This document shows positions 1 through 61,930 of a DNA stretch of 64,000 nucleotides, piece by piece. Origin of the DNA: Fistulifera solaris (lineage: Eukaryota); contig AP026152.1 of the NCBI GenBank assembly GCA_030295235.1, positions 682,001 to 746,000 on the forward strand, given 5' to 3'. The stretch's first letter is position 1. Every line of letters starts with the position of its first letter. The position numbers were made by a program, and so were the translations under genes. The notes beneath the pieces were generated by a model that saw only the letters and a program-made list of their open reading frames with translations, did not search any database and had not been told where the DNA came from.

Positions 1-495
1 ATTCGTGTATTGAATGGGATTGTAAAGCCACCCATCGAAGCAGAGCGACGAAAAGAACGGGGAGAAGAAGAAGAACAAAAGAGTGGTTTTACATGGCCGT
101 GGCAAGCCGAGTCGTCAAACGAGGATACGACTAGTATTTTAGAAGGATTGCCCGAAGCGGTCAAAGGGGCTTTTGTTTGCTTATTAACACGAGCGTTTGA
201 AGATGAAGGGGATGCCGAAAAGTTAGTTCCCATGTTGGATATGATGCAACACAGTGAAGATCCTTCCATTTCTCATGTCATGCGCAAATCGGATGGTAGT
301 GTGCAAGTCCGAGCGCGGAAAGCATTGGAGGGTGGTGAAGAACTTTTCAATCAGTATCGTTCCGAGTTGGAAGAAAGCATGCCGTATCATCGTTTCTTTA
401 CACGGTATGGCTTTGTTCCCGGAGTAGAAGAAGATATGATGAATTTGTTACAAGACAAATCTTCTATCTTCTTTGCTCAAACAGCCGAAGTTTAA
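1..495 (+). CDS. SET-domain protein (Rubisco-LSMT/SETD3-like), 3' part only
   Basis: Frame open from base 1; SET signature LVPMLDMMQHS...GEELFNQY...RYGFVP. Confidence 0.75.
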   Translation: MRVLNGIVKPPIEAERRKERGEEEEQKSGFTWPWQAESSNEDTTSILEGLPEAVKGAFVCLLTRAFEDEGDAEKLVPMLDMMQHSEDPSISHVMRKSDGSVQVRARKALEGGEELFNQYRSELEESMPYHRFFTRYGFVPGVEEDMMNLLQDKSSIFFAQTAEV

Positions 496-1202
496 CGTTG
501 TAAAGTAATTCTTGATTTCGAAAGAATTTTTGGTGCGTCGGCGTTTGTCATGTCATAAACAATTTCGAGTCCTTCCACTACTAGGTCGTTGTTATTGCTG
601 TTATTGTCACCGACCTTCCATTTCGTCACCACACGCCGTGGAAAGATCACCGGAATACCCCGATCATCTTCTTGTGTGACCAATTGAAACTCCGAGCTAA
701 ACACGGTCGATTCCGTACGTTCGGTGGCCCGTTTGGTCACTTTCATTTCTTTTGTTTTCCCATTGTTGTATTCCATTCGCAAGACGTTGGGATTCGATGC
801 CGACCACTGTGACGATCGTACCGTATTAGCAGTTATCGAATTTTCTAAATTGCCTTGATTGAAAGCACGATCGGCAATGACGATGTCCTCGTCGAATAAA
901 AGGAAACGAACGGGATATTCCAATAGTGTTGTTTGTTCGTCACTGCTACCAAATGATACTTGTCGACGCATGTTCCAAGTCCCCTGCCACGAAACAGGAT
1001 AATAGACATCCGGAGCTCCATAACCAGGAATTTTGGCTGAAGCACGACGCAATGTTGTTTCGGGAGGCGGTAAGAGAACAAAAAGTGACTGTTGCAGCAT
1101 ATCGCGTCGAGCCAGACTGTGGACTGTCGTCGTCCAAGCCGAGATGAATGGTAAGAAGAAACTGCTGAATAGACATATTGTCAGGCTGGATGTTAGCCTC
1201 AT
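492..1202 (-). CDS. Plastid/thylakoid-targeted conserved hypothetical protein (DUF6816-like)
   Basis: ATG at 1202, signal peptide ending ISA-W, then RR plus a hydrophobic stretch; YPxxWxGTW, DRAFN and NPN motifs. Confidence 0.55.
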   Translation of the reverse strand: MRLTSSLTICLFSSFFLPFISAWTTTVHSLARRDMLQQSLFVLLPPPETTLRRASAKIPGYGAPDVYYPVSWQGTWNMRRQVSFGSSDEQTTLLEYPVRFLLFDEDIVIADRAFNQGNLENSITANTVRSSQWSASNPNVLRMEYNNGKTKEMKVTKRATERTESTVFSSEFQLVTQEDDRGIPVIFPRRVVTKWKVGDNNSNNNDLVVEGLEIVYDMTNADAPKILSKSRITLQR

Positions 1203-1865
1203 GATAGTGATACGAGATGCTAAGAAAAGCAATTGTACCAGGTAAGTTGTTGTTGTCGTCAAAAGTGAACGAGAAAAGTGAGTCAGTCGTCACTCTTGTC
1301 ACAACTCGTGACTTGGACCTTGTAAGTAAGTTACCCTCATCCCTTATCATGTTTCGTACTATGAGCTGGTAAGAACTTTTTGTGAGTCAAAAGGGCGACG
1401 TGGCCCAGGATCGGCATCTTTTGACTTTTGACACGGACGGAAAGTTCAATGGGGATAAAGAACGCGCACCGAAGTCTTCTGGAGTCGTGAGTCAGTAGTA
1501 TTTGCAAGACAAGATTTCTGGCGGCAAGATACCACGACGTCATACTACAGCATGGAACAAAGTAAGTTCATTGGAACCTGACGCAGATGTAGGTCACTCT
1601 ACGAAATTCTGACCCATTCTGACGAAATTCGCACGATGGCGGGTTCCGATGCGCCACCAACTCACTCTCGATGAACAGTACAACTCCAAGTGGTACCGGT
1701 ACTCCGAACTCCGTACCTTTTGTACTGCGAATTCCAACTCAGCGCGATCCGATTGAATTCTCAAGAAGAAGAAAAAAAATCTCACAAAAGAGCAACCAAG
1801 CGATCACTCTTCTTTTATTGTTCTTGCTGTTATTGAATGAATCATCATCATTAGCCTACATCATC

Positions 1866-3374: not shown

Positions 3375-3529
3375 CCTCGGCGATGCATCTAATTTGATCC
3401 ATTTTTGTACAGTTTTCCTCCTATTAATATTCTTTCATTAAAAACTTAGACCTATAATAGATTATTTTTTATACAAGTGACTCTATCGTTTCTAATGCGT
3501 TGTTGTAGCTCATTATTGATTATACTTTG

Positions 3530-5864: not shown

Positions 5865-6889
5865 CCTTGAAATTGCACTATGAAACGAAGTGTTTGTTTA
5901 CGCCAGCCAAGACTGGATTGTACAGTAGTCATGAGTCATGAACCGAACAACAAAGGGTTCCGTTTTGCGTCTTTCGCCTCCGTCCAGTGTCATTCAACTG
6001 CGAATATAATTATATTTACGGGTAAATAAACTTGCAACAATGACGATTCTGAACTACTTGTTAAGATGTCCTTTTATTTTTCACGTCGAAAATCCGCGGA
6101 TCGATACCTTGAAATTTCACTATACAACGGAGTGTTGGTTTACGCCAGCCAAGACTGGATTGTACAATAGTCATGAGTCATGAACCGAACAACAAAGGGT
6201 TCCGTTTTGCGTCTTTCGCCTCCGTCCAGTGTCATTCAACTGCGAATATAATTATATTTACGGGTAAATAAACTTGCAACAATGACGATTCTGAACTACT
6301 TGTTAAGATGTCCTTTTATTTTTCACGTCGAAAATCCGCGGATCGATACCTTGAAATTTCACTATACAACGGAGTGTTGGTTTACGCCAGCCAAGACTGG
6401 ATTGTACAGTAGTCATGAGTCATGAACCGAACAACAAAGGGTTCCGTTTTGCGCCTTTCGCATCCGTCCAGTGTCATTCAACTGCCAATATAATTATATT
6501 TACGGGTAGATAAAGTCGCAACAATGACGATTCTGAACTACTTGTTAAGATGTCCTTTTATTTTTCACGTCGAAAATCCGCTGATCGATACCTTGAAATT
6601 TCACTATGAATCGGAGTGTTGGTTTACTGGATTGTACAGTAGTCATGAGTCATGAACCGAACTACGTTGGGTTCCGTTTTGCGTCTTTCGCCTCCGTCCA
6701 GTGTCATTCAACTCCGAATATATTCATACTTACGGGAAAATAAACTTGCAACAATGACGATTCTGAACTACTTGTTAAGATGTCCTTTTATTTTTCACGT
6801 CGAAAATCCGCGGATCGATACCTTGAAATTTCACTATAAATCGGAGTGTTAGTTTTCGCCAGCCAAGACTGGATTGTACAGTAGTCATG
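5865..6889 (+). repeat. Tandem repeat, 242-bp unit, ~4.2 copies (family A)
   Basis: CGCCAGCC at 5901, 6143, 6385; the fourth unit has a 12-bp deletion; reverse-complement homolog of 14500-15231. Confidence 0.95.
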
Positions 6890-10897: not shown

Positions 10898-11034
10898 TTG
10901 TATCCTATCTCGCACCAACATTTTTCTTTTGCTAGACCCAGAACTAGAGACAAGTGTCAAAATAGGTTTTCCACCATCGCTACACCTAAAGCATGCCATG
11001 AAACAACATTTGACGTTGACTTGACAGATAAACA

Positions 11035-11570
11035 TGAAACAGTGGAAGGGTACAACGCTTCCAGTGTTTACGCATATTTTACGTAGCTCTCGTATGGAAA
11101 TTTATCGACAGAGGGGGCACCCGGATATTCTGTAAATTCGATCAGACCATTTTTCGCGTCTTTTGGACATTAATGTCAACAATACTTTGCCCAACTCGCT
11201 TATGCGAGCCATGCAACAATAATCGACTCTGATTGGAAAGAGAAAGATGAAACAGTAGAAAGATACAACGCTTCCGTTGTCTACACGTAATGTACGTAGC
11301 CGCCGTTGGAAATTAAAATAAAATGTAGGGGCACCCGTATATTGTGTAGTTCGACATCATTCATTTATTGGATCTACAGCATTCAGATGTCCAACATTTC
11401 CTCGCCCACCGTACCTGGTATTCGCTTCGTGTAAGGAAGCAATAACCGCCCTCGATTTGAAAAACACAACGTTTGATGGAACGAATGATGCAACGCTTCG
11501 AAAGTAGACGTAGATTTCACGTAGCTCTCGTGGGGAAATTATTTATCGACAGAGGGTAACCCGCACATCT
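11035..11570 (+). repeat. Diverged tandem repeat, ~214-225-bp units, three cores (family B)
   Basis: CAACGCTTC...ACGTAG...GGAAATT...ACCCG cores at ~11050, 11264, 11489; homologous to 60426-61603. Confidence 0.85.
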
Positions 11571-13909: not shown

Positions 13910-14383
13910 TATGAATGAGAATGCAACTGGTCCAGAATTTCTGGACCAACCCAGATTTTCTGTACGAATGAAATGCAACTGGTCCAGAATTTATGGACCA
14001 ACCCAGATTTTCTGTACAGTAGGAATAAAATACAACTGGTCCAGAATTTCTGGACCAACCCCAGATTTTCTGTAAAAATGAAAAACAAGTGGTCCAGAAT
14101 TTCTGGACCAACCCCCAGATTTTCTGTAGGAATGAAATACAACTGGTCCAGAATTTCTGGTCCATCCCAGATTTTCTGTGTGAAAGAATACAACTGGTCC
14201 AGAATTTCTGGACCAACCCCCAGATTTTCTGTACGAATGAAAAACAACTGGTCCAGAATTTCTGGACCATCCCAGATATTTTCTGTGAAAGAAATACAAC
14301 TGATCCAGAATTTCTGGACCAACCCCCAGATTTTCTGTATGAATGAAATGCAACTGGTCCAGAATTTTTGGACCGACCCAAAT
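13910..14383. repeat. Minisatellite, ~51-57-bp unit x9, with 19-bp palindrome GGTCCAGAATTTCTGGACC (family C)
   Basis: Palindrome starts at 13929, 13981, 14038, 14091, 14145, 14196, 14250, 14302, 14356. Confidence 0.95.
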
Positions 14384-14499
14384 GGGCGAACGAGGGATGG
14401 TAATGAAGTCGACATTGCTTTGTTGTGATGTCAAAGGCGACGTTATATTTTTGTGAAGGGTATCGCGATACAAGCGCGACAAATGAAAAAGTTGTATTT

Positions 14500-15231
14500 C
14501 ATGACTACCGTGCAATCCAGTCTTGAGTGGCGTAAATCAACACTCTTTTCATAGCGAAAATTGTAGGTGTCGATCCTCGGATTTTCGACGTGAAAAATAA
14601 AAGAAACTCTTAACAAGTAGTTCAGATTCATCGTTGTTACGACTTTCCTTACCCGTCATTATAATTATATTCGCAGTTGAATGACAATGGACGGATAAGA
14701 GAGGCGCAAAACGGAACCCTTTGTTTTTCGGTTCACGACTACTGTACAATTGAGTCTTGGGTGGCGTAAACCAACACTCTTTTCATAGTGAAAATTGTAG
14801 GTGTCGATCCTCGGATTTTCGACGTGAAAAATAAAAGAAAGTCTTAACAAGTAGTTCAGATTCATCATTGTTGCGACTTTACTTACCCGTCATTATAATT
14901 ATATTCGCAGTTGAATGACAATGGACGGATGCGAGAAACGCAAAACGGAACCCTTTGTTTTTCGGTTCACGACTACTGTACAACTGAGTCTTGGGTGGCG
15001 TAAACCAACACTCTTTTCATAGTGAAAATTGTAGGTGTCGATCCTCGGATTTTCGACGTGAAAAATAAAAGAAACTCTTAACGAGTAGTTCAGATTCATC
15101 ATTGTTGCGAGTTTACTTACCCGTCATTATAATTATATTCGCAGCTGAATGACAATGGACGGATGCGAGAGACGTAAAACGGAACCCTTTGATTTTCGGT
15201 TCATGACTACTGTACAATTGAGTCTTGGGTG
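14500..15231 (-). repeat. Tandem repeat, 234-bp unit, ~3.1 copies (family A, inverted)
   Basis: Near-identical units 234 bp apart; the reverse complement aligns with the 242-bp unit at 5865-6889. Confidence 0.95.
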
Positions 15232-18155: not shown

Positions 18156-18549
18156 TGCGATGAAAAGCTAGTTGCCGACGTGCCTCACGCCTTGAGCTTG
18201 CTGTGAATAATCGACTTTTATGATGAGATCCCTTTTAATGCCATGAAACATTTCACTTGTACCAGGTATTCATTTGTTTTCTTTTCGGGAGGTTTGAAAG
18301 ACTTCCCCCCAAAGCCTTAGACCAGTGGTACTTTCTACCTTAGAGTCTTTTTTGGTACATAACCTACAAAATTCCTACGTGGGAAAATATTGGCGCGCGT
18401 CAAAAATCTCGTCCTCTTTTTTTTATTTCTTCGCTTTGCACAAAGAAAAGGGTGTCATTGCTCATTGTTTTTCGATAACTTTGACTGACTTTGAAATCTT
18501 GCTTCTTCTTTCTTCTAATCGCAACTTTTCTTTTGGCTTACTATTCAAT

Positions 18550-20653: not shown

Positions 20654-20808
20654 TGCAGTGCATGTCAATGTGAGATATACAAACGGACTTTATTCTGATT
20701 TTATTGTAACAGTGATAGTGTAGTAATATATACGGAGTAATGAACTGGAGAAAGGAACATGGCTAACTCATCCATCGGTCTAAGCTGACCGTAGCAAGAT
20801 GAGTGCTT

Positions 20809-24604: not shown

Positions 24605-25197
24605 TTACAGAATTTCTGGAGCCGGTGAACAATCCACAGATTTTCTGTAGTATATGAACTAACACAATCCTAAGTATTTATTCCTAATTTCCGAAAGTCC
24701 GAATGAATTTTCTCATGCGAATTGTTTGACGCTTTAAAACTGCAATTCTTTCCAGAATGTCTGGAATGTCGACAAAACCTCCGTAGACCGTGTGGATACC
24801 GATGCTTCCACATTTTTCTGGAAATTCTAAGGTTACAGGACTTCTCTTTGACGCAAACTGTCTGGTCCAGAATTTCTGGACTACATGCAACAGAATTTCT
24901 GGACCACGTGCAACAGAATTTCTGTTTGATGCCGCTAAACAACAACGCTACAGAATTACTGTTTGACGCATTTCACGCGTTTCCAGAATTTCTGGAAATT
25001 TCACACAACCTCCGTGTGGCGCAAGATACCGATTCCAGATTATCTGGAAACTTTATAGGATTTCTCTTCGACGCAGAATATTTGGTCCAGAATTTCCGTA
25101 GCACGCGCAACAGAATTTCTGCTGGACGCTTTTAACAACGACGCAAAATACCTGGTCCCTGGTCCAGAATTTCTGGACCTCCTCCACAGAATTACTG
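24605..25197. repeat. Irregular array of CAGAATTTCTGG-type palindromes (family C related)
   Basis: More than 10 degenerate (C/A)CAGAATTTCTG(G) cores with variable spacers. Confidence 0.8.
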
Positions 25198-29646: not shown

Positions 29647-30044
29647 AAAGATAATAAGCCTCGCACAAATGTTCAGCCGCAATCGACAAAGTACCAGGTA
29701 ACGAGGTAATGGGCGCCTTTCCTTCGCGATTAAAAGTTCAATTGTCGATTCTTAACAACACAAGTCATAATTTAGCTAATTTCATTTGAAACACCACTAG
29801 CAATTCGATGAAATATGGGTCCTTTATTATGATCGTATTCTAGATCCGATGCGGTGAAATGTTATAAGTTATGATGTGAGGTGCGGCGCACAAGGTGACA
29901 CCAAGTGCGCAAAAATGAATAGGGTGCTGTGTGCAGTGTAAACAATCACGTCTAATCGAGACGTGTGGGTGTGTGATTCAGTGTGGGAAACAAACAAGTT
30001 GCTGGTGTGCGATCCAACCTGTGCAAGTAATAAATATTGCAGTT

Positions 30045-37738: not shown

Positions 37739-39628
37739 GAGTTCTCAAATAAAAGTTTTATGATTACACGACTTGTTGGTTTCTTATGATGTGATGTTTT
37801 TGTGTTCGCAATTTTTGCGCTTTGAAAATACCTTCGTTTTTTACAGACCTTGGCGCAAAGACGAGTTTGACTTCTCCGCGATGGCCGCTTTGGCAAACGA
37901 GTATCATGCGGAATGCGGAGAGAATGAATTCCTTAAAGTCTTTGCTCTTCTGCCATTAAGTGTGAAGAGAGAAGCTATCTCTTAACTGTGGAAGTATTGT
38001 ACGATTAGGGACTACAGAACGATTATCGGTATTGAAAGTTCAAACACCAAGATTTAACAGAAAAATGGCCACGCTACTTTCAAGTGAATAGATTCGGATT
38101 GGGTAAGATTCGTTTTTTTTCGATAGGTACCAGTAAGTAGTTAAAATTTCAAATATGCATTAGATGCCTTAATGTCCCTGTTCCGTGACAGCACTACCAA
38201 TGACTCCTCTTGAACTTCCACATGAATTTTTTTACACAGTGTTCTGTTCTATTGTTGGCACATTGAAGTTGAACTTCGGATAAAACAATTTATCATTCAT
38301 CATATTATTTAGCCTTCTACGATGGTCGGACAAATTAAGCAAAATATCTCTATTCCTCGTTGTTCTTCTCTCATTTCTGGGCTCTTCGCTTCCCTAATCA
38401 AATAACAACCGTTAATCGTCAATGTTCATTCGAATGACTAAGTCAATTGCGCAATACGCGCGCGAAACCGAACTGGATACTGACGTCACTACTAGCTCGA
38501 GTTTGTATAGGATAAAATTGTAGTGATCGTGCCTACAACGTTATGCCCAAGACAATACCCAAGACCAAATCAGGAAAAGATTGCATGCAGCATACAGTAC
38601 GAGTATTCGTAGATGATTCGTGAATGATTATCTATCTTCAAACTTTAAGGCAAATACAGGAGTATAAAGAATTCACGGGTGACTTTTTAATCAGCTGTTT
38701 TCGATCTAAAATAATAATGATAAGCTTCCAAGCTGCTCTCTCGTTTCATTTTCATTTCTTCGAAAGGCTGGTTAGCTGCCATTCAAGCTCTGACTTGCTT
38801 TCGTGCTGAACGGCACCAGTCGGGGGTGACAAAAAATACGCAGTCATTTGCACCAGGTAGCGCGAATACAATTGATAGCAGATAGCAGCTCACCATGGAC
38901 GAATGGCTAGAAAAAGCTATGATTGTTTGCGAATCATTCTCTTTAATTATTGTCTCGTCGACCCTACTTAGCCGGAGCTAGAGTGACAAAAAAACGATGA
39001 GACGCTGACTTACCATGTCCCTTTTCAAAAGGTAGAATAAAAAATACCGCGTTGCACGTTCGGTGATCGGTGAGCTAAACGGCCGAACTTTGTTAGAATT
39101 CTTTTATAAAAAAAAAGCTAAAAGCTAAAAGCTAGTCTAGGCCAAAGGCTGCCACGAGACTTGGTTCTATGTTATGCGTTACGCCTTTAGGGCCTTTTAT
39201 AAAAAGTTAGGCCTCATTTCTCATTACAGTATCGCTCAAGATTGATTTCGAGGTACATTCTGGAGAACACTACTGAGAACCGTATTGAATGTCGCAAGTG
39301 ACACTCCGATGATTTATTTTCTCCTTGCGTCGACGTCGAAAGAAAGTGTTCCGTTGGCGGTTACCAGGTATGGAGTTGGCGTTGGAGGTTGGAGTTGGAG
39401 ATAAAAGGCTCACCGGACCGCACACAGACACGCGGCCGCTAAAAGTTTTATTGCTTGGAAACTATCGACAGATCACTTTCCAAAAGTATTTACTTTTTTG
39501 TTGTAAATACGGAAGGTTCCTCCGGAAGTGGTGTATTTGTTTGCTTTTGCTCGATTAGATCAGCAACTGCAGGTGATTTATTCGAGCGCTTTACATTTTG
39601 AACGAGAGATATTATTTAGAAAGCCAAA

Positions 39629-41075: not shown

Positions 41076-41697
41076 CTTCCCTTCTCGTTAACAAAGCTTT
41101 TTAAAAAAGAGATCTACGATGTTGCTTATACCAGGTATTTAGAGGGAGTTGATGATCATCGCAGCAACAACTCTCATTATTTTGAGGTGGGCAACGCAAA
41201 AACACATTGCAAGCACATTGCTCGTGACTTGTTTCTATCAATCATCGTGTTGCCCTTGAACCAACACTTTGAGCCTATAGAAAATTCCTAATCGCACGGC
41301 CCGAAACGATAGTACCACCGCAACGTATTCAGGCAACGAATTATGAGTGTTTATGAATTATGAACATTCGATATAAAAGCGGCGGTGATTCAACCAAAAT
41401 TCATTGCTTACCACGGCAGTCATGGCCGTGTATTTCGAATTCTGTGTCGATAAAATCGGTTTCGACTCCTCAATGAATCGTGTTTGCCGTAAACCAACAC
41501 TTTGAAGCTATAGTACTTTGTAGCTCCACAATCCGGGTTACCTGGGAGCGTTATTATTTTGCGGCGTGTGTTGATAGTGTTGCGAGTGTTGACTGCGTTG
41601 ACCTATTGTTATTATTGCTGTTTATTTTCCTATAAACTGCCATTTTGTTTGAATTGGCGACATTATTTCTTTTCTTATTGAATGAATCTTATCGGGC

Positions 41698-43445: not shown

Positions 43446-43950
43446 ACAATCCTAAGTTGTGTTGCAACGCAAACTAGATATTCCGTAGGAGCTATGCTTT
43501 TGGATGAAAGGTTTTGATTTTGTTGCAAAGGGTAGAAGGAGCAGCAGGTCCGAGATCAGAGATCCAAGATCCAAGCAATGGCAGAATGACCACTACAACA
43601 GTAGTCTATAGTAAAACTGGGTCATTGGTCATTGTTTTGCAATACATCCGGGTTTCCGGGTTGATAGTGCTGCTGACTTGACGGACGGACGGCGAAGAAA
43701 CGCGGAAGAAAAAGCGAACCGACGCAACGGGTCTAAAAATCACAACAAAGCATCACAAGTCACTGCAAATATCTCAAGCCAAAACGACGATCGACCCAAA
43801 CCCCAAACCCACCATTTTGTTCATTATAAAGCACCAAAGGCTTTTTTTGAGGGAGAAGAAAGGTGAGAGAACCGTTTTTTTGTGTTGAATATCAATTTTG
43901 AATATTTTTATCGTCATTCCGACAGTTCGGCCGTACCTGGTATTTTTCAA

Positions 43951-45506: not shown

Positions 45507-45654
45507 TAATAATAAAGAAGGTTGTATGCAATTTATTTTTAGAAATAAAAATTAGGCGAAGAGTGCCCGTGTGTGAGTTGTCTGTAACGGGTGAAAGCAT
45601 TTGTTGCCACCTTTCTTGGTTTTTGCTCCGTCAAGCATTGATTGTCACCGTTTC

Positions 45655-46050
45655 AGAATTTCTGTAAAATTGGCAACAATTTTAAAAAAGCTTCCGGAAG
45701 GAAAGCCCACAAGAATATTCAGAAGTCACACAGCATTTCTGTATGACCAAAAACCTAGCCCAGAATTTCTGGAGTTCACACAGGATTTCCGTATTACCAT
45801 AAACAATGGCAGTTTCCAGAATTTCTGGAACTCGCTCAGAATGTCTGAATGACTAAAAAAACAATCGTAAATCTCTCAAACGTTCATAGAATTGGATTGG
45901 GGCCAAAATGCTCACACAGAAGATCTGTGAAAACATCGTGCAGCAATTCTGGGGATTCCAGAGTTTCTAGAGCCTTTATCCTGAATTCTGTATGACCGAG
46001 ACCGAACACATCCAATACACCCTTTCCAGAAATTCTGGAAATTACACGGA
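45655..46050. repeat. Degenerate array of CCAGAATTTCTGG palindromes (family C related)
   Basis: Cores at ~45657, 45760, 45816, 45958, 46026; flanks resemble the 24.6-25.2 kb array. Confidence 0.65.
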
Positions 46051-46583
46051 TTTTCCGTACAACCGAAAATAATTTTTTTCAGTTCCGTTCACTCCTCGCT
46101 TTGTTAACTAGCCGGATGGTTGACGCGAGAGTAAGTGTCACTTCAATTATTTTATCGACTTCCGAGACTCTCACTCGTGACTCAATATTTTAGAATGACG
46201 GAGCGGTATTGGCACTATGATAGCAAAAACTACGTAAAGGACATCGCCAATCGGTATCAAAGGTACACTAACTTCAGATGGTGTCGCACCTTTCCTTTAA
46301 GTATTCTTTCATGATGATTCTCTATTGTACTCTGACTATTGGAGTAAACCACACTTCTCCCTCTAAGTATTTATCATCAACAGCTATTTCAAACGCGCGC
46401 ATATCCTCAAAACATTGGCGCGAACAAGACGCAGATGGGCGATCGCCTCATCGCTTGTTTATTTACAACTTTGCACTGCAACAAAAGAAACCAAAGCATT
46501 TGAATCTTGATTTGCAACTATATCACTGAACAACCACTTAATCAAAGAATCATCGAAGGCTTCCGCCCGTCTTAACAGAAAGA

Positions 46584-54481: not shown

Positions 54482-55622
54482 GATCCTGCTTTACTTTTCC
54501 AGACTAGGAGAAAAAAATGAAAAAGGGAATGAGACGATACGTCGAAAAGTTACGAATATGAAGAATACAATACCAGGTAATACAACACCTGAAGACACCC
54601 ACATTCTGTTTATCCGATGAACACGAAAACGCGATGTATTTCGATTTTTGTCTCGGTAACACCATTCAGATAACTCACCTTGTTTATAGGAAAGAGACGT
54701 AAAAGAGAAAGAAACAAAATAGTGCAATAGTCACGAGGATTATGAATTGCCGTGAGACCTCTTACGCCGCTGTGTTGTAAAAAAGTGGCTTGTGCCTTCG
54801 TGGTGTTTTTTTCGACCGAACGGCGAAGCAGCCACACAACGCAAAAGGAAGACGACGAGAACAAGACGCAAGACGCGGGCAACGCTTCCCTGAGCGAGTG
54901 TACAGTTAAGGCCAGTGCTACATGGGACTAAACTTCATTGTCGACTTCAATGTAGAAACGCGGTGGGCGGTGGATTGCCCTTCTCGAAGGCTTTTCCGTA
55001 ATAGGTGTCTCGAAATGTCGCTTTTCTGTTAAGTTCGTATCTAACAAAATGACTTTGTCAGATTTACTACTGTAGACGAAAATGCTTCCTAATGAAGTTG
55101 TTCTCTGTCTTATGTTTCCTACTATGAGGAACATCACTGGAGACTTATAATACTTACGGTTTTCGGTCATTAGTGTCTTCTCATTCGCCATGGGCTGTCT
55201 CATAAAATGTACTGTAATAAACGGAGACGAGAATACAAACGAAACACTAAACTAGCTAAGTTTAGGGGAGAGGGAATTCTCTCTAGCTAGAAGGCTGTAG
55301 CTAAACATTATATTGGTGCCGAACCTCCGTAACGACATACCTAATCAAATGATCACCCGGTCAATCACATTAGAGTAAACATAAGCAATAAACTATTCTT
55401 GTTCTTGCTTTGTTCAGAGTGCATCTATGTAAAATTCGAAGAAGAAATAGATGTTTTCTTGTCATGCCGCAAAAGTTCATAAAAAGATCATTAATTCTAA
55501 TACTTTAAGGTGCACGGTTGCACGGTTGCTGAAGATGTAAACGAAAACTGATGTAATTGTAGTATGGTTATCCCATCTCTATTTTCAGTCGGCTGACCAT
55601 ACTGTAGCACCACTCCTGCAAT

Positions 55623-57046: not shown

Positions 57047-57174
57047 TTGAAATAGTTGGAATGAGTTTGTTGACAACAATCTTATATTATTGACATCATT
57101 AGGAAAGACAATGGATACAAATTTTATTGCGTCGCTATGTGCGGTGGCATAACATACACGTGGACGTGGACGCC

Positions 57175-57650
57175 CATCCCCACATTTTCTGGGTACGTGA
57201 AACAACACACACGCCCGCATTTTCTGAAAGCACCGAACATCCAGATTTTCTGGATACGTAAAAACTTAGCTCTTCCGGCTTTTCTGGGTAAGGTAAGGTT
57301 ACCAGGTACTAAATATTTTACCACACGCCCACATTTTCTGTGCACGAGAAAGAACCGATCTTCCAGATTTTCTGGAAATGTGAAAACACCACACCCCCAC
57401 ATTTTCTGGGCACGTGAAAGCACCGATCATCCAGATTTTCTGGAAATGTGAAAACACCACACCCCCACATTTTCTGGGCACGTGAAAGCACCGATCATCC
57501 AGATTTTCTGGATAGTTGAAAATCCACATGCCCACATTTTCTGGGGACGTGAAAGCACCGATCTTTCAGATTTTCTGGAAATGTGCAAACCCCAATCGTC
57601 CAGGTTTTCTGTGGATGTGATTGACACCGCATGCCCACATTTTCTTGGTA
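57175..57650. repeat. Minisatellite, 68-bp unit of two ~34-bp halves with CCA(G/C)ATTTTCTGG core (family C related)
   Basis: CCAGATTTTCTGG at 57363, 57431, 57499, alternating with CCACATTTTCTGG. Confidence 0.9.
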
Positions 57651-58089
57651 AACCTTTGGACTGGTCTACTTGAAAGCATGAAGCATCACACTCCCAGGTA
57701 AAAAGCCTTACAAGTTACAAGTAGTCTTCCGGACAAGTAAAATAGTTTTTCTATACCTGGTTCGATACCCCCAGGTTTTCTTGAAACGTAAAATCCCACA
57801 CTCCAGATCCAATCAAGGATTTACATTTTTCAGAAATGGTGGGAAAGGCCTACGCCGGACGATTTGGAATTAGAAATAATAGTTATAGCAAAGAGCATAT
57901 GGGGGAATGGGGATGACATGCCGGAGTCACGCCTGACTTTTGGCCCTTGCCTCTGCTCTTAAGGTTCTGCATGCCCCCATGCCCCCCCGGAGCCCGTTAA
58001 CTGTAGATCGCGTCGTGAACAAAAGCTTTTGAAGTCGCAAAAGATCATCTCTTCTCGTATAACTTGGTCATTGTAATTATAAACCTTTC

Positions 58090-60294: not shown

Positions 60295-60317
60295 CAAGAC
60301 TGCTTTTCAGTCACGAC
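60295..60317. promoter_or_regulatory. 23-bp palindrome, copy 5
   Basis: Reverse complement reads gtcgtgactgaaaagcagtcttg; ~180 bp upstream of the trpCF ATG. Confidence 0.4.
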
Positions 60318-60425
60318 GCCTTATATATTTACAAGATATGTATATGATATTCTCGCTAGCCCCTGTATGTAAAAACGGAATACCAGCGAGATGCTGCTCC
60401 GCCGCGGACGACAACTTTAATCTAA

Positions 60426-61603
60426 AAACAAAAGGTTGACGGAACGAACAATGCAACGCTTCGAACGTCTACGTAAATTTCACGTAGCTCTCGTAGGGAA
60501 ATTTATCGACAGAGGGGTAACCCGGACATTGTGTATTTTCGATCACATCATTTTCCGCATTGCCGACAACACAATGTCGAGATTACTTGGCCCAACATTG
60601 CTAATGCGTGAATTAAAAACAATAATCAATTTTTATATGACAGTGATACAAGAATTAGTCGAAAGATACAACGCTTCCAGTGTCTACGCGTATGTTACGT
60701 AGCCGCCGTAGGAAATTTATCTCTGTAGGGGAACCCGGAGATTGCATTCTTCCCCATCATCCGATTCTTGGGTTTCCAGTGCACTGATGTCAATGTGATG
60801 TTGCGCAACGTATTCGCTTCGTTTCGGGAAGCATTAATCGCCATCGAATCGTAAACAAAAGGTTGACGGAACGAACAATGCAACGCTTCGAACGTCTACG
60901 TAAATTTCACGTAGCTCTCGTAGGGAAATTTATCGACAGAGGGGTAACCCGGACATTGTGTATTTTCGATCACATCATTTTCCGCATTGCCGACAACACA
61001 ATGTCGAGATTACTTGGCCCAACATTGCTAATGCGTGAATTAAAAAACAATAATCAATTTTTATATGACAGTGATACAAGAATTAGTCGAAAGATACAAC
61101 GCTTCCAGTGTCTACGCGTATGTTACGTAGCCGCCGTAGGAAATTTATCTCTGTAGGGGAACCCGGAGATTGCATTCTTCCCCATCATCCGATTCTTGGG
61201 TTTCCAGTGCACTGATGTCAATGTGATGTTGCGCAACGTATTCGCTTCGTTTCGGGAAGCATTAATCGCCATCGAATCGTAAACAAAAGGTTGACGGAAC
61301 GAACAATGCAACGCTTCGAACGTCTACGTAAATTTCACGTAGCTCTCGTAGGGAAATTTATCGACAGAGGGGTAACCCGGACATTGTGTATTTTCGATCA
61401 CACGCTTTTCATCTAACATCTAACTCTTGTAATTAAAGTGCACAAATCTCGACGTTTTTAAAAAGCGCATCGTATTGTCCTCTTATTCGGAAGCTTTTTT
61501 CATCTTTGATTTCAAAACGAAACGTTCCTAAAACGAAAAATACAACGCTTCGAACGTCTACGTAATTTCACGTACCTCTCGAAGGGAAAGTTAGATCCCG
61601 GAT
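60426..61603 (+). repeat. Higher-order tandem repeat: 427/428-bp unit of two diverged ~214-bp monomers, ~2.3 copies plus one degenerate core (family B)
   Basis: Units identical except for one A-run; cores at ~60452, 60667, 60879, 61095, 61307, 61541. Confidence 0.95.
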
Positions 61604-61930
61604 ACGGACGAAAATGGTTTTCATTTCGACTGGCACTTCCATCCATTATAAGCGAGCGAAATCAGTAAGGTTATTTGTTATTTACGCAGCGTGACGATAC
61701 GTGGCGAAGTCACGCATGTGTGGGCCTACAGCCTACATTTACGAGAATTTACCTTACTTTTCTGCTTCATGGCGGAAGAAACGCATTGAAAGCGTTACTT
61801 TGACGAAACTTAAAAGTCTTAATTCTCGGCGATGAATAGATTAAGATACGGCCGAGCGTGCGAGCGTGCGTTAACATAAAGCGTAAACATGTATTGAACT
61901 TGATACCAGGTACAGCCAGTTTCATGTCCT

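Follow-up and report, generated by a model that had tools for sequence, protein, structure and literature searches.

The nine-base word TACCWGGTA, which is scattered between the genes of Fistulifera solaris, is very probably the excision footprint of a TA-targeting element of the Tc1/mariner type (DD39D-like). We analysed a stretch of 64 kb (the window, C32:682001-746000 in an assembly of 51.7 Mb and 62 contigs), the genes of which are ordinary eukaryotic ones. The window holds ten exact copies of the word, far above the mean of 0.10 and the maximum of 1 seen in 100 dinucleotide shuffles, and the ten start coordinates given in the initial annotation are all exact. TA stands on both sides of 10 of the 65 CCWGG sites in the window, and the S-centred versions of the word, TACCCGGTA and TACCGGGTA, do not occur within it. 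Genome-wide, the word is found 4,372 times and its reversal 329 times. A 664-kb sample, composed of the stretches L033-L092 and the window, contained 60 copies against 2.1 expected, and 191 kb of unique non-ORF DNA contained 47 against 0.6. The two orientations are near equal in number (32 and 27), and the only flank bias is a mild preference for a purine preceding the first TA. Among the first 100 listed sites, three pairs of copies are nested, overlapping at an offset of exactly 7 bp.

Comparison with related sequences indicates that the word arises by insertion. Its type case, TACCTGGTA at 11412..11420, lies in an array of repeat family B (10905..11560, + strand), where the repeat alignment reveals a 7-bp insertion at the TA of one unit. 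None of the 32 other aligned units carries these 7 bp, the units of a second array (60310..61610, + strand) also being without the insertion, and 22 of the 28 distinct versions of the other units have a single TA at this position. The change from TA to TA-CCTGG-TA, which the initial annotation had read from two repeat copies, is thus as described, and it holds genome-wide. Paralogs tell the same story: four of 71 distinct sites in 925 kb had them, and the word was absent from all four, with a net difference of +7 at three sites and +13 at one.

The assembly consists of two subgenomes that are about 80-90% alike, with the homeologous contig pairs C34/C35 (86%), C5/C6 (88%), C32/C33 and C30/C31; run X1 also shows two haplotypes. 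We compared the window with 47.5 kb of its partner C33, counting 7 of 11 sites as aligned. The eleventh site, CACCAGGTA at 38851..38859, is a probable one, since its first base reads T in both runs (the second run, with a 0.05 share, was used for this base only). The homeologs are gapped at five of the seven sites. The gap is a clean +7 for the TACCAGGTA copies at 29692..29700, between convergent ORFs, and at 41129..41137; it is a net +7 at 54571..54579 (TACCAGGTA), a net 5 as aligned at 38851, and +9 at 39362..39370 (TACCAGGTA), where the homeolog lacks all 9 bases and has no TA at the site. At 18260..18268 (TACCAGGTA) the word is absent from a homeolog that is locally unalignable. Finally, at 61904..61912 (TACCAGGTA) the homeolog reads TACCAGATA, which we take for an older shared scar, or possibly a chance resemblance. 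The four sites outside the alignment are the type case, the TACCAGGTA at 1236..1244, about 34 bp 5' of the first ATG of a DUF6816 ORF, the exact word TACCTGGTA at 43934..43942, and the TACCAGGTA at 57300..57308, which interrupts a 34-bp tandem array. Joints listed for the two-haplotype run pass over 43934 and 54571, without resolution of the junctions. All four sites compared between C34 and C35 are gapped (+7, +12, one unclear and one nested +13 that reads TA-CCAGG-TA-CCAG-TA). Repeat units, paralogs, window homeologs and the C34/C35 sites therefore agree on a 7-bp gain at TA with both copies of TA kept, the exceptions being 39362 and 61904. Point-substituted 9-mers at orthologous sites, which the initial annotation had named as evidence against a footprint, occur at one of the seven alignable sites (61904), against gaps at five.

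The distribution of the word relative to genes bears out the expected avoidance of reading frames. Stop-free frames of at least 150 codons hold 7 of the 60 word sites in the 664-kb sample, as against 57% of TA and 68% of CCWGG. The ten window sites had been placed outside coding sequence, and they are indeed non-coding: site 1236 falls inside a mechanical ORF (492-1262, minus strand) but upstream of its first ATG. Window sites lie 34-1,624 bp upstream of ORF starts, or 3' of ORFs in 2 of 11 cases (introns left out), and this spread shows no fixed distance to gene starts. One-mismatch neighbours of the word are near expectation, with 71 against 67.6 in the 664-kb sample and 28 against 20.3 (P 0.06) in the 191 kb of unique non-ORF DNA, so the mean decay of the word is probably about 2% per base or less, well below subgenome divergence.

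The word is accompanied by a series of sister words. In unique non-ORF DNA, we found 14 copies of TACCAGTA (3.3 expected), 11 of TACCGGTA (1.3), 15 of TACTCCGTA (0.9), 11 of TACTACGTA (1.1), 8 of TAAACCTTA (1.2) and 62 of TACAGTA (18.4). TACCTGTA is not enriched there (3 against 3.4), and its lack of excess beside that of TACCAGTA and TACCGGTA suggests a donor end that begins with CCA. Longer joins are not enriched genome-wide (381 against 799 for the control), and the 3+3 product is absent from the 664 kb. Three further words have the form TA+5+TA, with the cores CTCCG, CTACG and AACCT, and the first and last bases are complementary in all four cores. The second TA+5+TA word, TACGGAGTA/TACTCCGTA, is present in the window at 20731..20739; one of 30 TACGGAGTA sites had paralogs, which gave a clean +7 at TA (L107 7876). 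As a separate observation, TACTCCGTA is commoner in the homeolog C33, where 47.5 kb (L260-L266) hold 6 copies, as against 1 in the 64 kb of the window (P 0.047), and TACCWGGTA is less dense there (2 in 47.5 kb against 10 in 64 kb), a difference that is not significant (P 0.08); an opposite subgenome bias of the two words is possible. On C3 (L057, about 3410-3470), AACCT-TA and then CTACG-TA follow one another at the TA of a repeat unit, as judged by eye against the repeat consensus.

Scanning for TA-flanked terminal inverted repeats (TIRs), we identified a 2.03-kb element with short TIRs ending in CCATT. The family comprises ten paired copies and one solo end, with TA flanking all 20 paired ends; five compared copies are 98.8-99.7% alike, and one copy lies within a repeat, the empty unit of which shows just one TA. 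Most copies (L108 3946-6695 on C34 and nine other loci) are internally deleted, and the one on C13 spans 7.9 kb, which implies that it carries an insertion. The longest copy encodes a D-D39D triad in a frame split in two, and no intact transposase frame was seen in the family. The triad residues are D39, D247 and D287 in P0006 and D74, D197 and D237 in the plant-like P0001, with which P0006 shares 24% identity; relatives have a spacing of 38 or 39. The relatives of the CCATT transposase form a large protein group, with 135 representatives at E 1e-30 or better. Of 19 metagenome loci inspected, eight have an end in which TA is followed by CCTTTC and one an end in which it is followed by CCATTC; weak single cases are a locus with TA-CCGG-TA abutting the element end and another with TACCAGGTA in its flank. 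Two other elements are resident, both with CTCC ends that TACTCCGTA matches. The plant-like DD39D element on C31, found with a degenerate motif pattern, has CTCCC/CACCC ends and is adjoined by TA-CCAG-TA-CCTGG-TA; the homeolog is not alignable across the site of this CTCCC-ended element. The DD38D element, a single damaged copy, ends in CTCCG and has AA, not TA, as its left flank.

The initial annotation had called for a very active element that targets TA, ends in CCWGG and is cut with a 5-nt stagger. Resident TA-duplicating elements of the DD39D type were indeed found, but none has CCWGG termini: no CCAG- or CCWGG-ended element turned up in the roughly 0.77 Mb of 51.7 Mb scanned for TA-flanked TIRs or beside transposase matches, these searches being insensitive. 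Three protein searches yielded no further families with TIRs. Pfam searches of the genome with DDE_3, DDE_1 and Transposase_1 gave no matches, a zero that is uninformative because the resident transposases score below the DDE_3 cut-off. Nothing useful came from three viral scans or from a metagenome scan with one protein, and cluster names were uninformative. No case of an element in one allele and a scar in the other was seen among the matches listed for homeologs and for two runs over 20 kb, and the density of scars is not clearly raised around CCATT copies (5 in 30 kb of flanking DNA). A pattern for a sister of the CCATT family with CCAG ends occurs 31 times against 33 for the control, and the two double matches inspected proved to be coding DNA of homeologs and not elements. 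Neither a degenerate match at C34:198212 nor a DD38D-like ORF on C7 has convincing TIRs. On C7 (L107/L105, 1092.5-1096 kb), a 607-codon open frame is 41% identical to DD38D transposases and has altered catalytic motifs; no TIR was found at this locus, and the frame is possibly a domesticated transposase.

The footprint would form in four steps. An element would insert at TA and duplicate it, as the resident elements have done. Judging by Tc1/mariner chemistry, in which the cut in the non-transferred strand falls a few bases within the element and a footprint remains after end joining (PMC8151067), excision would then leave element-derived 3' overhangs. These would be overlapped by end joining around a central A.A mismatch and the gaps filled, which would fix CCAGG or CCTGG between two TAs. 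The net gain of 7 bp is, as seen for the word, nearly absent from reading frames and concentrated between genes, with its TAs reused so that scars become nested.

The five bases can be parsed as 3+2 (from CCA), 4+1 (from CCAG) or 5 (from CCAGG), so that footprint length does not give the stagger. Tentatively, we name the young CCATT-ended DD39D family as donor and the word as a 3+2 join, because no other young TA-duplicating family was found and because none of the enriched CC-words requires more than three bases from one end. A 3-nt CCA overhang would yield the main word as 3+2, TACCAGTA as 3+1 and TACCGGTA as 2+2. Against this donor, the 3+2 join needs a one-base mismatched overlap. Moreover, CTCCG, CTACG and AACCT are compatible with 4+1 or 5+0 alone, a point in favour of a common rule and against 3+2. 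A rather unlikely source is a CCAG-ended donor, now lost or undetected, with a 4-nt stagger like that reported for plant DD39D elements and a 4+1 join, made by a 3-base overlap with two base pairs and a one-base gap fill. Such a join is consistent with the 1-4 terminal bases that Osmar5 and Ppmar2 are described to leave (PMC9632168, PMC1925063), with the complementary outer bases of all four words, and with TACTCCGTA being 4+1 for both CTCC-ended residents, whereas TACTCCCTA is found once in 664 kb. Human polymerase mu, in addition, is described to favour the template base adjacent to the downstream end and to skip ahead (PMC5622330). The 4+1 join is weakened by the failure of the TIR scan and of the transposase flanks to reveal a CCAG-ended element, and no product needs four or more bases from both ends. 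Termini of CCAGG with a 5-nt stagger, which would overlap fully and form four base pairs around a central mismatch, best explain the uniformity of the word (4,372 exact copies genome-wide, and longer joins not enriched), and the CTCCG end of the DD38D element equals the 5-mer of the second word. That match can equally be 4+1 and comes from the damaged copy, the same scans disclosed no CCWGG-ended element, and the footprints described in the cited texts reach at most 4 nt (PMC9632168, PMC1925063, PMC8151067); we consider a 5-nt stagger rather unlikely. More speculatively, diatom DD38D/DD39D-like transposons might cut 5 nt inside their ends, beyond the staggers of the cited papers, several families having left words of their own (CCWGG, CTCCG, CTACG, AACCT) and scars altering upstream DNA quickly enough to have produced the subgenome-specific promoter motifs, and some of the expression bias, of allopolyploid diatoms; we regard this as rather unlikely.

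Origins other than excision fit the data poorly. A transcription-factor site or an enhancer maintained by selection would be non-coding and often upstream of ORFs, as the word is; one site (61904) is common to homeologs, and CCWGGTA heads the list of Fso_l-biased motifs (PMC5935921 Table S4). However, the word arises by insertion and is absent from six of seven aligned homeologous sites, it stands at scattered distances or 3' of ORFs, inside repeats and nested in itself, and degenerate variants are absent. Conservation at orthologous positions and a preferred distance, which a conserved site should show, were not found either, and a regulatory origin, to which we give very little weight, is largely refuted; some copies may have been co-opted later as regulatory sites. 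The CCWGG core is Dcm-like and the palindrome resembles HIP1, and methylation-directed repair at such a core could account for exactness and for the point-substituted homeolog at 61904. It is remote as an origin, given that gains are gaps and not substitutions, that the word is kept out of reading frames and plain CCWGG is not, and that sister words without CCWGG behave alike. The gap pattern thus defeats both the regulatory and the methylation-repair origins. A by-product of a separate process that makes 7-bp tandem duplications is hardly credible: such duplications are in excess (267 against 33.7 expected), and 7 is a peak of homeolog indel length, but the inserted seven bases are identical everywhere and are not copies of neighbouring sequence. 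We very probably see, instead, the footprint of a TA-targeting element.

The tandem duplications are an observation in their own right. In the 664-kb sample the excess of duplicated 7-mers, which are of arbitrary sequence, is accompanied by 263 6-mers (135 expected) and 39 8-mers (6.7), and the divergent haplotype of run X1 lacks a 7-bp duplication that the window carries at 54960-54973. This suggests a distinct process that has a stagger of 7 bases. On C35 (L237 452-1793), a 1.3-kb element has perfect 23-bp inverted ends and, by eye and with no Pfam support, a Harbinger-like ORF fragment. It has apparently made a 3-bp AGT duplication, which we take to be comparable to PHIS duplication types, and it occupies the same TA at which two nested scars stand in the homeolog, which points to a hot spot. 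The window also contains arrays built on the palindromic word CCAGAAWTTCTGG (13913-14379, 24850-25190, 45640-46070 and 57169-57790), which is among the most over-represented words of the 664-kb sample and shows, as far as tested, no relation to the scar. A satellite-like unit of 234-242 bp forms two inverted arrays (5865-6889 and 14498-15231), which are 81-89% complementary and lie about 8 kb apart. Between 37151 and 57150, the window shows many single-base indels relative to the near-identical haplotype of run X1; these suggest uncorrected assembly errors, and frame breaks in this genome therefore need care.

Excision footprints have been described in assays and at single loci. In the present 52-Mb genome, one exact footprint would have become fixed some 4,400 times, so that TACCWGGTA would record, in countable form, cut-and-paste transposition that leaves hardly any elements behind. 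Such an origin would give a mutational source to a published diatom promoter motif with no assigned factor, and it is a caution that scars can be picked up when motifs are sought in diatom promoters. The scars may serve as presence/absence markers for subgenomes and strains, and the 5-base core offers a direct test of transposase stagger and diatom end joining. What the present analysis adds is the homeolog test, the sister-word series and a concrete candidate donor. Among the literature matches listed, which leave most subscription journals outside, none identifies TACCWGGTA as a footprint, and none reports a canonical Tc1/mariner footprint of 5 nt.

Tc1 leaves a footprint of 2 nt and Minos one of 4 nt. 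The canonical footprint of Sleeping Beauty is TA-CAG-TA (PMC8151067). The diatom word resembles it in the TA duplication that is kept, the presumably element-derived core, the complementary outer bases, the central A/T ambiguity and the dominance of one product, and differs in having a core of five bases rather than three, a donor that is only a candidate, and thousands of natural fixed scars. In the Fistulifera solaris genome, the published promoter motifs biased towards Fso_l include MCCTGGTA, CCWGGTA, ACCTGGTA, CWGGTAS, TACHRGTA and RCTMCGTA, for which Table S4 names no factor (PMC5935921). Like the word and its sister words, with which they coincide, these motifs lie upstream of genes in a two-subgenome diatom; they are discussed there as possible regulators, whereas here the word is seen to be an insertion. 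Closest to the resident elements are the plant DD39D/PlantMar transposons and Stowaway MITEs (Osmar5, Ppmar2, Triticeae Stowaway), with which they share D-D39D or D-D38D triads and TA duplications (PMC9632168, PMC1925063, PMC4561436, PMC7325037). The described plant footprints likewise combine n bases from one end with m from the other, and the same TA is reused, but they are described as diverse, while a single word dominates here. The hosts given for PlantMar are plants and oomycetes, and the word 'diatom' does not occur in the main text of that study (PMC7325037). Unlike the plant elements, the young diatom family ends in CCATT and not in CTCCC, and its first two aspartates are 207 residues apart, some 85 more than the 122 of the plant-like element.
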